A stretch of DNA of 64,000 nucleotides from a virus: positions 51,841-115,840 of the IMG/VR virus record IMGVR_UViG_3300041809_000571, one strand, 5' to 3'. This document shows positions 28,884-30,487 of the stretch, piece by piece. The translations under genes and the position numbers were made by a program. Under the pieces are notes generated by a model, which worked only from the letters and a program-made list of their open reading frames with translations, ran no database searches and had not been told where the DNA came from. Each line of letters begins with the position of its first letter. The stretch's first letter is position 1.

Positions 28884-28971
28884 GTAGGCGTGTCCGAGCG
28901 GCAAAGGAGACCGGCTGTAACCCGGTTGACCCATGTGGTCTACGCAGGTTCGAGTCCTGCCGTCTACACCA
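28884..28971 (+). tRNA. tRNA-Tyr(GTA)
   Basis: Acceptor GTAGGCG/CGTCTAC, anticodon arm ACCGG-CTGTAAC-CCGGT, long variable arm, T-arm GCAGG-TTCGAGT-CCTGC, CCA encoded. Confidence 0.75.
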
Positions 28972-29431
28972 AAATTAAGGTGTGAGCGACATTTGTGGTG
29001 GCCTGTAAAACTTGTTGGAGAGAAATGAGACCATCATGAATTTCGCCGTGACAGTTTGAACACACTAATGCACACTTTTCAAGTTCTGGTAAGGTTTTTT
29101 TCCAAGACTTGAATAACCGACTGATTGAAAACTCCTTCTCTTTAGGGTTTATGTGGTGGAAGGTGAGAGAACGAAGGCAACGGTCATAACCGCAGATTAT
29201 ACACTTTCCGCCAAAATGGGCAACGGCTTGAGCTTTTATACTCCTGCGCCAGCCTGAGATTTTATTACGGTTTCGCTCTCGGTAATTTATTGACCGTTTG
29301 TATTCGCAAGAACCACAGATTGGACGACGACCGTCTTTTCCACCTGAGTTTTTGCTGAATTCTTCGATGGACTTAGAGTTAGAACAATCCTTGCAGATGC
29401 GGGTTGCGGGTACAATCATTGTAACCTCCAT
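28964..29431 (-). CDS. HNH homing endonuclease
   Basis: CxxC zinc finger then CIICGYDRC...HHINP...N...CSNCHGEIH; stop overlaps tRNA-Tyr 3' end; paralog of 56831-57253. Confidence 0.7.
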   Translation of the reverse strand: MEVTMIVPATRICKDCSNSKSIEEFSKNSGGKDGRRPICGSCEYKRSINYRERNRNKISGWRRSIKAQAVAHFGGKCIICGYDRCLRSLTFHHINPKEKEFSISRLFKSWKKTLPELEKCALVCSNCHGEIHDGLISLQQVLQATTNVAHTLILV

Positions 29432-29455
29432 TAAAGGATTGAGTAGTTGAGATTT

Positions 29456-29540
29456 GCCGGGCTGGTGAAATTGGCAGCCGCAGCGGGCTTAAACCCCGCC
29501 GACCTCGGTCATGGGGGTTCGAGTCCCCCGCCCGGCACCA
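29456..29540 (+). tRNA. tRNA-Leu(TAA)
   Basis: Acceptor GCCGGGC/GCCCGGC, anticodon arm GCGGG-CTTAAAC-CCCGC, long variable arm, GGGGG-TTCGAGT-CCCCC, ACCA. Confidence 0.75.
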
Positions 29541-29546
29541 AGATTT

Positions 29547-29632
29547 GCGGTTGTGGTGGAATGGCAGACACGCCAGCTTGAGGGGCTGGTCCGGGCAACC
29601 GGGTGGAGGTTCGACTCCTCTCAGCCGCACCA
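29547..29632 (+). tRNA. tRNA-Leu(GAG)
   Basis: Anticodon arm CCAGC-TTGAGGG-GCTGG; long variable arm; TTCGACT T-loop; CCA. Confidence 0.7.
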
Positions 29633-29637
29633 AATTT

Positions 29638-29724
29638 GCGGGGGTGGTGGAATTGGCAGTCTCGCCGGTCTCAGAAGCCGGTCCGGGAAACCGGGTGAGG
29701 GTTCGAGTCCCTCTCCCCGCACCA
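29638..29724 (+). tRNA. tRNA-Leu(CAG)
   Basis: Anticodon arm CCGGT-CTCAGAA-GCCGG; variable arm TCCGGGAAACCGGGT; CCA. Confidence 0.7.
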
Positions 29725-29731
29725 AGATTAC

Positions 29732-29816
29732 GCCGGGATGGCGGAACGGCAGACGCACTGGGCTTAGAACCCAGCGGTTAACAGCCATAGGGGTTCAAAT
29801 CCCCTTCCCGGTACCA
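29732..29816 (+). tRNA. tRNA-Leu(TAG)
   Basis: Anticodon arm CTGGG-CTTAGAA-CCCAG; long variable arm; GGGG-TTCAAAT-CCCC; CCA. Confidence 0.7.
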
Positions 29817-29820
29817 AGTT

Positions 29821-29895
29821 TGTACGGTGTTCGAGAAAACGGACAACTCGCCCCTTGAGTGGGGAGGTATGGGTTCGAGTCCCATCCATCGTACA
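29821..29895 (+). pseudogene. tRNA-like element with non-canonical anticodon arm (pseudo-tRNA?)
   Basis: Good T-arm ATGGG-TTCGAGT-CCCAT and pairing 5'/3' ends, but anticodon stem CCCC/GGGG with 6-nt loop and 3-nt gap before acceptor; no CCA. Confidence 0.3.
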
Positions 29896-29899
29896 GTTT

Positions 29900-29986
29900 G
29901 CGGAAGTGGTGGAATTGGCAGTCTCGCTAGGTTGAGAGCCTAGTGCCTGAAATGGCGTGAGGGTTCGAGTCCCTCCTTCCGCACCA
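29900..29986 (+). tRNA. tRNA-Leu(GAG) second copy
   Basis: Anticodon arm CTAGG-TTGAGAG-CCTAG; long variable arm; CCA; body differs from 29547 copy. Confidence 0.65.
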
Positions 29987-29992
29987 ATATTT

Positions 29993-30077
29993 GCCGCTGT
30001 GGTGGAACTGGTAGACGCACCCGGCTCAAACCCGGACGGGGAAACCCATGCAGGTTCGACTCCTGTCAGCGGCACCA
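29993..30077 (+). tRNA. tRNA-Leu(CAA)
   Basis: Anticodon arm CCCGG-CTCAAAC-CCGGA (one mismatch); long variable arm; CCA. Confidence 0.65.
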
Positions 30078-30117
30078 ATTTAACGCACGGTAACACCAGC
30101 CGTGTTATCGTGCAAAT

Positions 30118-30210
30118 GGAAGGTTGGCAGAGTCCGGCTAATTGCACTGGTTTGCTAAACCAGCGTCCCCGAAAGGGGGCACACAGGTTCAAATCCTGTA
30201 CCTTCCGCCA
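30118..30210 (+). tRNA. tRNA-Ser(GCT)
   Basis: Acceptor GGAAGGT/ACCTTCC; anticodon arm CTGGT-TTGCTAA-ACCAG; long variable arm; CCA. Confidence 0.75.
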
Positions 30211-30215
30211 AATTT

Positions 30216-30303
30216 GGAAAGCGCTGCGCAATGGCGTGCAACCGGCTTTGAATACCGGGGCGTGGGGAGACTCACGGGGGTTCGATTCCCCAGCTTTCCT
30301 CCA
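30216..30303 (+). tRNA. tRNA-Ser(TGA)
   Basis: Acceptor GGAAAGC/GCTTTCC; anticodon loop TTTGAAT; long variable arm; CCA. Confidence 0.65.
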
Positions 30304-30307
30304 TTTT

Positions 30308-30397
30308 GGAGAGATGGCCGAGTCCGGCTTATGGCGCTCGCTTGGAAAGCGAGTATCCCGCAAGGGGTCACAGGTTCAAATCCTGTTCTCTCCGCCA
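30308..30397 (+). tRNA. tRNA-Ser(GGA)
   Basis: Acceptor GGAGAGA/TCTCTCC; anticodon arm CTCGC-TTGGAAA-GCGAG; long variable arm; CCA. Confidence 0.75.
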
Positions 30398-30401
30398 GTT
30401 T

Positions 30402-30487
30402 GGAGGGTGCCGCTGAATGGTCAGCAACACGCCTCGAAAGCGTGGGTTGGGTAAAACCAAGGGGTTCGATTCCTCCTCCCTCCGCCA
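30402..30487 (+). tRNA. tRNA-Ser(CGA)
   Basis: Acceptor GGAGGGT/TCCCTCC; anticodon arm CACGC-CTCGAAA-GCGTG; long variable arm; CCA. Confidence 0.75.

Follow-up and report, generated by a model that had tools for sequence, protein, structure and literature searches.

Amino-acid-sorted tRNA gene arrays of a jumbo phage and their codon-matched leaders: a candidate case of transcription attenuation

The stretch of viral DNA analyzed in this work (64,000 nucleotides, positions 51,841 to 115,840 of the IMG/VR record IMGVR_UViG_3300041809_000571; hereafter, the window) is part of a 364,142-bp contig (ena:ERZ27249816:k141_1180871), and its source is therefore a jumbo phage. Two groups of transfer RNA (tRNA) genes sorted by amino acid are located in the window: a Tyr-Leu-Ser group at 28.9-30.5 kb (array 1), and a group for His, Arg, Asn, Lys, Phe, Met, Pro, Gln, and Trp (then Arg) at 56.4-63.5 kb (array 2). 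Each array is preceded by a short open reading frame (ORF) and by a terminator located between this leader ORF and the first tRNA gene. Here, we describe the genes and features of both loci (Table 1) and consider whether the arrays may be controlled by attenuation of transcription at their leaders.

The tRNA genes in the window were called by ARAGORN at its default setting and, in addition, at the relaxed threshold -ps90, and were scored with the Rfam family RF00005 (gathering score 29). In the first-pass annotation of this DNA, array 1 had been read as a complete set of class II tRNAs, i.e., tRNAs whose variable arm is long, comprising Tyr(GTA), six Leu, and four Ser genes, all with encoded CCA. 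Ten of the eleven genes were recovered by ARAGORN at default with identical anticodons; the remaining one, Ser(CGA), is real but is called only at -ps90. CCA is present at the 3' end of all eleven genes, as read from their sequences. The genes are 85-93 nt long, and in the ARAGORN structures each has a variable arm of more than 10 nt that forms a stem-loop. By the wobble rules, the anticodons of the array can read every Leu, Ser, and Tyr codon, and all Leu and Ser codons are used by the phage genes, TTA and CTA at 6% each. The identity-set discriminators in bacteria are A73 for Leu and Tyr and G73 for Ser. In array 1, the Leu and Tyr genes end in ACCA and the Ser genes GCT, GGA, and CGA end in GCCA, while Ser(TGA) has U73. 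The RF00005 gathering score is exceeded by nine of the eleven genes (44.9-57.5 bits), and Ser(TGA) and Ser(CGA) fall short of it. The claim of a complete, CCA-encoding class II set was upheld, with the correction that the two latter genes, half of the Ser set, have the 8/4 and not the 7/5 structure. The HNH endonuclease gene described as flanking the array had to be relocated as well, as its ORF lies between the Tyr gene and the Leu block, inside the array.

Table 1. Features of the two tRNA loci, with positions numbered from the first nucleotide of the window
Feature	Coordinates	Strand	Details
Terminator-like hairpin closing the preceding unit	28521-28545	+	Hairpin scan; kept in L019; upstream of the array-1 promoter
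Array-1 promoter (predicted)	28580-28609	+	-35-like CTGCAA 28580-28585, 18-nt spacer, extended -10 TGGTATTAT 28601-28609
Leader ORF 1	28737-28829	+	MKNLSSNSLSSLSYSSSLLSGLVLPDGWDG, then stop; 30 codons; 7 Leu (all six codons), 10 Ser (TCG, TCC, TCA, AGC, AGT), 1 Tyr
Antiterminator 1 (predicted)	28791-28864	+	28791-28813 with 28842-28864, enclosing hairpin 28816-28820/28833-28837; minimum-free-energy structure
Intrinsic terminator 1	28853-28880	+	GAGGCGGCT-GAGA-AGCCGCCTT and T run; 9-bp GC-rich hairpin; ends 4 nt before tRNA-Tyr
tRNA-Tyr(GTA)	28884-28971	+	Bacterial class II type, A73, CCA; ARAGORN; Rfam 52.7 bits
HNH endonuclease ORF	28964-29431	-	155 aa; PHROG 2255 'HNH endonuclease' E 8.3e-34 and eight further HNH families
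tRNA-Leu(TAA)	29456-29540	+	ARAGORN; Rfam 44.9-57.5 bits (range of TAA, GAG, CAG, TAG)
tRNA-Leu(GAG)	29547-29632	+	ARAGORN; same Rfam range
tRNA-Leu(CAG)	29638-29724	+	ARAGORN; same Rfam range
tRNA-Leu(TAG)	29732-29816	+	ARAGORN; same Rfam range
tRNA-like gene	29824-29894	+	Inside the Leu block; ARAGORN 'tRNA-???(ga)'; 6-nt anticodon loop (TTGAGT)
tRNA-Leu(GAG), second gene	29900-29986	+	ARAGORN; Rfam 47.2 bits
tRNA-Leu(CAA)	29993-30077	+	ARAGORN; Rfam 46.9 bits
tRNA-Ser(GCT)	30118-30210	+	Canonical class II, G73; ARAGORN; Rfam 53.4 bits
tRNA-Ser(TGA)	30216-30303	+	8/4 fold: 8-bp acceptor, 4-bp T stem, 5-bp D stem, 4-nt D loop; U73
tRNA-Ser(GGA)	30308-30397	+	Canonical class II, G73; ARAGORN; Rfam 56.1 bits
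tRNA-Ser(CGA)	30402-30487	+	8/4 fold, G73; ARAGORN at -ps90; Rfam tRNA-Sec 37.2 bits
15-bp hairpin	30714-30747	.	Between array 1 and the convergent MVP-like gene; T run strong on minus, weak on plus
Array-2 promoter (predicted)	56002-56031	+	CTGCAT, 18 nt, TGGTATTAT
Leader ORF 2	56215-56304	+	MRNRKPNPMQWQPKRHFSRPSFGGLPFAP, then stop; residues 1-17 only M, R, N, K, P, Q, W, H, F
Antiterminator 2 (predicted)	56268-56355	+	56268-56287 with 56331-56355, enclosing hairpin 56291-56298/56317-56324 with stop codon; overlaps terminator 2
Terminator 2	56333-56364	+	Stem 56333-56339/56350-56356, 7 bp, 10-nt loop, T6; ends 7 nt before tRNA-His
Array 2	56372-59892	+	His, Arg x3, Asn, Lys x4, Phe x2, Met x3, Pro x4, tRNA-like gene, Gln(CTG) x2, Trp x2
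tRNA-Arg TCT, CCT, CCT downstream of array 2	61489-63517	+	ARAGORN, Rfam

In total, 37 tRNA genes were called by ARAGORN in the window. They are grouped by amino acid into blocks, of which the three for class II tRNAs stand apart, 26 kb from the others. By arithmetic, 3 of 13 blocks would land together with a chance of 1/286, and the class II grouping is not a matter of chance. It had been described as unusual organisation, which is correct as far as it goes. No close relative is present among deposited phage genomes: the sole DNA match is the roseophage DSS3_MAL1, in which Ser-Leu-Leu is part of a mixed array, and the 462-kb huge phage LR756500 has 27 dispersed, unsorted tRNA genes. Because the tRNA genes of these two phages are mixed or dispersed, sorting by amino acid is a property of the clade studied here. 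Overlooked in the earlier description were the two sorted operons with an apparently common promoter type and with matched leaders and terminators, as well as the 8/4 Ser tRNAs. The tRNA genes seen cover 12 amino acids, with none for Ala, Gly, Val, Asp, and Glu (all GNN codons), Ile, Thr, or Cys in the ~82 kb of the 364-kb genome that are visible. A third array for Ala, Gly, Val, Ile, Thr, Asp, Glu, and Cys was sought; on the source contig, the 8 kb before the window and the 10 kb after it contain no tRNA genes, and scans of IMG/VR with the promoter motif returned only the two known arrays in each relative.

Relatives of the phage were found via the neighboring gene for a major-vault-protein-like (MVP) product. 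The Tyr-Leu-Ser array occupies the same locus in L001/L002, L019, and L020 (MVP protein identity 86-94%), with differences in copy number and order, and four Ser genes and a Leu gene are still found together in L026, at 63% MVP identity. For seven of the eleven array-1 tRNAs, there are orthologues at 89-100% identity in the relatives, and for the other four there are none above 80%; the array is therefore a mosaic, in which the class II grouping is nonetheless conserved. Such a grouping could be a functionless by-product of local duplication and anticodon change, with homing endonucleases shuffling the cassettes, an explanation that is compatible with the attenuator proposed below. It would account for the closer similarity of isoacceptors (Leu-Leu 60-80%, Ser GCT-GGA 75%, Ser TGA-CGA 66%) than of genes for different amino acids (50-62%), and it agrees with the variation of gene number, gene order, and positions of endonuclease ORFs among the relatives and with the sorting by amino acid of all tRNA genes in the window. 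The Tyr gene, however, is 54-62% identical to the Leu or Ser genes, no closer than these are to each other, so duplication explains the isoacceptor blocks and not the membership of Tyr. No pair in the array exceeds 80% identity, so there was no recent duplication. Moreover, the Tyr-Leu-Ser block stays together with its matched leader in relatives with MVP identities as low as 86%, and the four Ser genes with Leu down to the 63% mentioned above. We regard a by-product of this kind as possible, if somewhat doubtful.

Both arrays appear to be under one promoter type. The two predicted promoters have the same motif and spacing, together with a conserved upstream part, ATGGCCGG..AAAAAAT; the array-1 promoter escaped the consensus scanner because its -35 element is weak. 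This promoter is located between leader 1 and the hairpin that closes the preceding unit, and terminator 1 therefore belongs to the leader transcript and not to the upstream gene. Both terminators end so close to tRNA-Tyr and tRNA-His, respectively, that there is no room for a separate promoter. In L020, terminator 1 has one compensatory change, G:C to C:G. These features bear on one alternative, an ordinary constitutive array that supplements the host tRNA pool (codon compensation), with upstream ORFs and hairpins of no significance and with terminators that serve only to end the preceding units: the array-1 promoter is conserved, and its position puts the terminator on the leader transcript. 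A third copy of the extended -10 sequence TGGTATTAT is found elsewhere in the window, at 36633-36641, where a NUDIX hydrolase ORF (36647-37180) starts with its ATG 6 nt further downstream; it probably belongs to the same early promoter class and gives an almost leaderless mRNA.

The leader ORFs match the arrays in composition. The first two thirds of leader 1, which we term the codon sampler, consist of nearly only Leu, Ser, and Tyr codons, and each of the 10 distinct anticodons of array 1 has at least one cognate codon in the leader. All six Leu codons occur among the seven Leu residues of leader 1, for which P is 0.02 given the codon usage of the phage, and all four leader-1 variants keep them. 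Residues 1-17 of leader 2 represent exactly the nine amino acids of the His-to-Trp array; both Gln codons are CAG, and the array holds Gln(CTG) only. For the composition test, all 366 ATG-started ORFs of 20-60 codons in the six frames of the window were compared, with background frequencies of 0.185 for Tyr, Leu, and Ser and 0.349 for the nine-residue set. Leader 1 ranks first for the former set, with 16 of 17 residues (next best 11; binomial P 2.6e-11), and leader 2 ranks first for the latter (H/R/N/K/F/M/P/Q/W), with 17 of 17 (next best 15; binomial P 4.8e-8). In the cross-matrix of leaders and arrays the maximum is on the diagonal. That each leader is the single best of the small ORFs for its own array and is located directly upstream of it argues against the constitutive array with its incidental ORFs. 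The leaders are also conserved. Leader 1 is retained in L001, L019, and L020, with in-frame indels (multiples of three); between the window and L001, the ~140 nt upstream of tRNA-Tyr are almost identical though the tRNAs differ, with indels of only 9 nt and 3 nt. Leader 2 is retained in L006-L009, with two synonymous changes only in its first 17 codons. Exact-pattern searches with the leader or 8/4 tRNA sequences returned the same close relatives only, and the leader DNA has no match in deposited phage genomes.

In each leader transcript, the terminator overlaps a longer predicted helix, the antiterminator. The 5' strand of antiterminator 1 lies within the leader ORF, from codon 19 on, and the loop of the hairpin enclosed by it holds the leader stop codon. 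The terminator and the antiterminator are mutually exclusive because the 3' strand of the latter contains the 5' arm of the former. The effect of a translating ribosome was modeled by folding, codon by codon, only the RNA 3' of the ribosome footprint, up to the end of the terminator stem. With leader 1, the antiterminator and no terminator pairs form in the model when the A-site codon is 2-15, 4 pairs form at codon 16, and 7-9 pairs at codons 17-31; with leader 2, there are none at codons 2-17 and 7 from codon 18 on, i.e., from the exact end of the cognate-only stretch. The switch point of leader 1 stays within codons 16-19 across footprints of 9-17 nt, and none of 200 codon/spacer shuffles reproduced the switch behavior. 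A terminator 5' arm embedded in a long alternative helix, which shuffles fail to reproduce, is a further argument against incidental hairpins before a constitutive array. Close relatives behave like the window in the folding model, including L007 despite its different terminator. In L006-L009, the terminator of leader 2 differs, yet the leader segment TCGGTGGGC is able to pair with the arm GCCCACCGA, and the modeled switch is at the same place.

Alternatively, the leaders could be translated and important in some way that involves no terminator/antiterminator switch: as micropeptides, by protecting the transcript from Rho or RNases, or by a ribosome occluding the terminator. A C-terminal motif, DGW(D/E)(G/Y), is common to leader 1 and to the leaders of the Ile/Thr/Gln arrays described below, as this explanation would allow. 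However, the codons of this conserved C-terminal part fall in the stems of the alternative helix, and their conservation is therefore explained by RNA structure. The variable part of the peptide tracks the tRNA content of the array, which would not be predicted from a micropeptide function, and the predicted switch point in the window coincides with the end of the cognate stretch.

Leader/array pairs of other compositions were identified in distant phages. In L022 (MVP identity 63%, a 454-kb contig), the leader MMNTPQTRITTTTQCVGGFASDGWEY (excerpt MMNTPQTRITTTTQ...) and a terminator are followed by an ORF and then by two Ile genes, Thr CGT/GGT/TGT, and two Gln(TTG) genes; the Thr codons of this leader, ACA, ACC, and ACG, cover all three Thr anticodons. 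L021 is similar to L022, with ...TQRQTRITTRTQQTT... and a terminator before an Ile/Thr/Gln array. Arrays for Trp, His, Arg, Asn, Gln, and Lys (Phe) have upstream leaders containing ...KQGERQRKHNNRWFG... (...RQRKHNNRWF...) in L026/L103 and ...RKHQGDVRTNQRNNRWFG... (...RKHQ..RTNQRNNRWF...) in L107, each located behind a sigma-70 promoter and followed by a terminator. In LR756500 (24% GC, MVP identity 42%), MKAISVHIIHIWEHLLEEVNINIM (excerpt MKAISVHIIHIWEHLLEEV...) and a 10-bp terminator are situated directly before His-Glu-Val-Trp (empirical P 0.003). In the same genome, an ORF on the minus strand (LR756500.1 100287-100550) ends 8 nt before a Ser(GCT)-Ser(TGA) pair, with no terminator between (P 0.003); its last 17 residues, SENSSLNSDSSSSLLYS, resemble window leader 1 in composition. 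These distant pairs support the codon match and not the exact mechanism. The match is found again in at least four other array types, which differ in their amino-acid sets; this counts against constitutive arrays.

The reading that we favor, with a probability of roughly 0.7, is that the tRNA operon is controlled by ribosome-mediated transcription attenuation that senses the decoding of the codons served by the array itself. Transcription would proceed from the extended -10 promoter near 28601-28609 through leader 1 to the terminator at 28853-28880. Slow decoding of any codon of the sampler, when the charged tRNA is scarce, would hold the ribosome upstream of 28791; the antiterminator would then form, the terminator would be blocked, and RNA polymerase would enter the tRNA genes. 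When decoding is fast, the ribosome would melt the antiterminator, allowing the terminator to form and turning the array off. The tRNAs of the operon would themselves restore fast decoding and thus shut the operon off, closing a loop in which supply follows demand. Array 2 would work in the same way, its leader sampling the codons for His, Arg, Asn, Lys, Phe, Met, Pro, Gln, and Trp. Amino-acid starvation, depletion of host tRNAs, and cleavage by defence nucleases are possible triggers; the polynucleotide kinase Pnkp and the Rnl1-type RNA ligase encoded in the window (see below) fit a conflict over tRNAs. Attenuation accounts for the co-regulation of the genes and for what the leader contains; the sharing of one operon by Tyr, Leu, and Ser in particular is not accounted for by it. 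With a somewhat lower confidence, we also lean to the more general proposal that this clade of jumbo phages meters its tRNA supply by codon-sampler leaders with about one codon per tRNA species, in which any one shortage would open the whole operon and the new tRNAs would close it.

Several points weigh against attenuation. Leader translation, its coupling to host RNA polymerase, the regulatory outcome, and the biological trigger are, like everything concerning the attenuator, expression included, deduced from sequence. The coupling would fail if the phage separates transcription from translation, as phages with nucleus-like compartments do. The Shine-Dalgarno motifs before the leaders are weak (GAGAAG and GGAGAG), and L001 retains the TTA codon in its leader though no Leu(TAA) gene was found there. 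With leader 2, another choice of footprint flips the predicted state at a few codons. In the absence of a ribosome, the RNA of leader 1 adopts the antiterminator fold; the default is therefore ON, unlike in trp. In the covariation analysis, which comprised four near-identical variants only and had no statistical power, 96% of antiterminator cells are paired, the values for the alternative helices being 96% and 94%, and the one compensatory pair is in the terminator; support for the antiterminator from covariation is nil. Among the distant phages, the folding model gave no clean antiterminator or switch for L021, L022, L026, L107, or LR756500. The tRNA array of DSS3_MAL1 has no leader, and 12 of the 16 tRNA clusters of LR756500 lack cognate enrichment upstream. 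Finally, the Ser-rich frame before the Ser x4 and Leu array of L026 (4425-4560, equal to L105 403-535), KRSSTSSSNGVCLRKAIKETLIAAD followed by a stop, has no start codon. This frame comes after an A AAA AAG run and its stop codon is in the terminator loop; a different logic or a frameshift could be at work there.

Some of these points agree with the two alternatives. Phage tRNA arrays are common and most are without such a leader, as DSS3_MAL1 and the LR756500 clusters illustrate, and the folding model gives no clear result in distant relatives; both facts are in keeping with constitutive arrays. Set against the position of the promoter, the rank of the leaders, the embedded terminator arm, and the recurrence of the match, they leave a purely constitutive array improbable. 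The lack of a clean antiterminator in the distant relatives would equally suit translated leaders that involve no switch, as would the Ser-rich frames that reach or enter the terminator or the tRNA in the L026 Ser array and the LR756500 Ser-Ser pair. In view of the composition of the variable part and of the place of the predicted switch, we consider such leaders to be an unlikely explanation.

The fold of Ser(TGA) and Ser(CGA) was derived by hand. The acceptor stem has 8 bp and the T stem 4 bp; the D stem, of 5 bp, closes a 4-nt loop, and the variable arm is long. This fold was examined on an alignment of six sequences, the two window genes and four homologues from relatives. In the 8/4 structure, 92.4% of cells are paired and 12 pairs are changed on both sides (compensatory); in controls with every 3' partner slid by 1-3 columns, ~50% are paired. 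Column 77, which decides between the two structures, pairs with column 8 in four of the six sequences and with column 61 (the 7/5 alternative) in one. Pair 8 in the window Ser(TGA) is G.A, and in L019 and L020 the 8/4 fold is confined to Ser(TGA). Both window genes appear to belong to the (8/4) tRNA-Ser or allo-tRNA class, which is already known, having been found among the clustered tRNA genes of uncultured phages (Mukai et al. 2017; PMC5389517). The likeness extends to the 8-bp acceptor, the 4-bp T stem, the long variable arm, G73/U73, the Ser anticodon, and the location in a phage tRNA cluster; the phages of that study differ in having (8/4) tRNA-His with no G-1 and with A73 (PMC5389517), whereas the window tRNA-His is canonical, with encoded G-1 (56371) and C73. 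A selenocysteine tRNA was considered for Ser(CGA) and Ser(TGA) and rejected: RF01852 is their best Rfam match but at 37.2 and 33.5 bits, respectively, is below its gathering score of 47, the anticodons are CGA and TGA and not UCA, and the branch has 12 bp and not 13. For annotation, the array provides a complete class II set with two 8/4 tRNA-Ser genes that are overlooked by standard tRNA models.

Free-standing homing endonucleases are known in phage tRNA arrays, such as segB of T4 and the HNH genes of the tRNA region of T5. The translation of the HNH ORF in array 1 contains the readable motif ...FHHINP...CSNCH..., and a Pfam search of this ORF gave no match. The ORF is missing at the Tyr/Leu junction of L001, L019, and L020, and other endonuclease ORFs occur elsewhere in their arrays. 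The HNH gene is thus an insertion within the operon, whose position varies by relative, and not a boundary marker. The Leu block also contains a tRNA-like gene (29824-29894) that was overlooked in the first-pass annotation. It has no long variable arm and no CCA, and GTACGGTG/CATCGTAC may form an acceptor stem of 8 bp; Rfam gave no match to this gene, which is missing in the relatives examined. Two further tRNA-like genes have 6-nt anticodon loops holding ATTA, one in the window (58939-59012, CATTAG; labeled 'Asn|Stop' by ARAGORN and carrying CCA) and one in L026 (17233-17303, ATTAAC; 'Stop|Leu'); they may be ochre-suppressor-like or decoys. The hairpin at 30714-30747 marks the end of the array-1 unit. 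It is separated from Ser(CGA) by a 226-nt stretch (30488-30713) that is missing in relatives and contains a partial tRNA-like element (30627-30676; Rfam tRNA 20.2 bits) with an anticodon-arm-like sequence, TCAAC-TTCCTAA-GTTGA.

Array 2 contains identical tRNA-Lys(TTT) copies, 166 nt apart (57409-57484 and 57575-57650), which represent a recent tandem duplication, and an 80-nt tRNA-Met(CAT) (58108-58187) with its anticodon at position 38 and an unusual D region, below the Rfam tRNA gathering score. The gaps 58358-58545 and 59422-59460 translate as GFDS / WVRVPP, i.e., contain T-arm sequences of the GGTTCGA type, and are probably tRNA remnants or unusual tRNAs not called by ARAGORN. The leader-2 5' untranslated region (UTR) has three tandem GC-rich hairpins (56133-56206), each followed by ACCA and a T run, which resemble a tRNA 3' end with its spacer; in relatives, the first of them shows a compensatory swap from GGCCC/GGGCC to GGGCC/GGCCC. 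Other decoding genes occur in the distant relatives (at L021 267-341, L022 7049-7125 and 2619-3003, and L104 1829-2250): a tRNA(CUA) amber suppressor, a permuted transfer-messenger RNA (tmRNA) in L022, and a tmRNA-like gene of the L026-type phage, with the tag ...ATAPKAFAAAA, whose sigma-70 promoter and 5' UTR are the same as those before the tRNA arrays of that phage.

Among the neighboring genes, the minus-strand ORF at 30761-33202 encodes a protein of 813 aa that is homologous to the major vault protein of eukaryotes (Pfam MVP_shoulder 1.4e-21, Vault_3 1.5e-10). More than 6,500 homologues were found, many on phage-like contigs of 200-450 kb, with 42% identity in the huge phages LR756500/501/503. 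Bacterial MVP homologues are uninformative with regard to the host, as only distant ones (<=46%) were found, in Myxococcota, Vulcanimicrobiota, Cytophagales, and others. A papain-family cysteine protease (27319-28260, minus strand; Pfam Peptidase_C1, E 6.8e-11) is syntenic with the array in L019 and L020. Further genes encode Pnkp (8524-9645; AAA_33 and HAD_PNKP), a T4 Rnl1-family RNA ligase (10031-11302), and a peptide deformylase (5772-6284). In T4, Pnkp and Rnl1 carry out tRNA repair; by analogy, the pair in the window fits a T4-like repair system and would point to tRNA-cleaving host defences.

The proposed control has counterparts among known systems. In E. coli, the pheM-pheST attenuator precedes synthetase genes. 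The leader-peptide attenuators trpL, hisL, leuL, pheL, thrL, and ilvL control amino-acid operons (PMC8079986, PMC6614838), and the known targets of attenuation are amino-acid operons, transporters, and some aminoacyl-tRNA synthetase genes, the latter including alaL-alaS, thrL-thrS, and trpL2-trpS in Streptomyces (PMC8079986). With the classical attenuators, the arrays share a short ORF rich in regulatory codons, a terminator before the genes, an antiterminator that shares the terminator 5' arm, and, as proposed, a decision by ribosome position. The classical targets, however, are biosynthetic enzymes and not tRNA genes, and their leaders contain a run of one amino acid, whereas the window leaders are phage-encoded and have codons for 3 to 9 amino acids, about one per tRNA species. 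The synthetase attenuators are similar in that the gene under leader-peptide control belongs to the translation apparatus and serves the cognate amino acid, and differ in that the product is the charging enzyme and not the tRNA and that the leader serves a single amino acid. T-box RNAs likewise choose between terminator and antiterminator to report tRNA status and control translation-related genes; in contrast to the translating ribosome proposed here as the sensor, they bind uncharged tRNA directly and need no ORF. A T-box or another known leader RNA family was rejected for both loci, as no Rfam leader or T-box family matched at 28400-30800 or 55900-56460 at E <= 1.

With regard to the arrays themselves, those of T4 and T5 and the sets of the huge phages LR756500-503 also have tandem tRNA genes interrupted by HNH or PD-(D/E)XK ORFs at varying positions. 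Unlike the mixed or dispersed genes of DSS3_MAL1 and LR756500, the window arrays are strictly sorted, with class II and class I tRNAs in separate operons that have a leader each. Phage tRNAs have been described as counter-defence against tRNA-cleaving systems (PMC10264068), as in the case of PARIS and the T5 tRNA-Lys (PMC11464382). Inducible replacement tRNAs would serve the same conflict as the Pnkp and Rnl1-type ligase of the window; those studies describe the tRNAs themselves and no sensing circuit before them. A literature search, of incomplete coverage and hence giving absence of evidence only, returned no report of leader-peptide control of tRNA genes or of phage tRNA arrays. Attenuation itself is classical; what would be new here is tRNA genes as its target, a multi-amino-acid leader with about one codon per tRNA species, its encoding by a phage, and its tie to sorted arrays.

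The purpose and timing of phage tRNAs have been debated for decades, and the proposed roles include codon compensation, the replacing of host tRNAs that have been degraded, and evasion of anticodon nucleases. If the proposed mechanism is true, these arrays would be under the first attenuator known for tRNA genes and the first leader that acts as an OR gate for multiple amino acids, and classical attenuation would be extended both to new targets and to this new logic. It would also explain why these phages sort their tRNA genes into blocks. The combination of a small ORF and a terminator that mirrors the composition of the downstream tRNAs would provide a search key for metagenomes, and the leader would be a natural element of small size with which to sense how fast chosen codons are decoded. 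For the phage, tRNA shortage would be a signal, one that is answered codon by codon.

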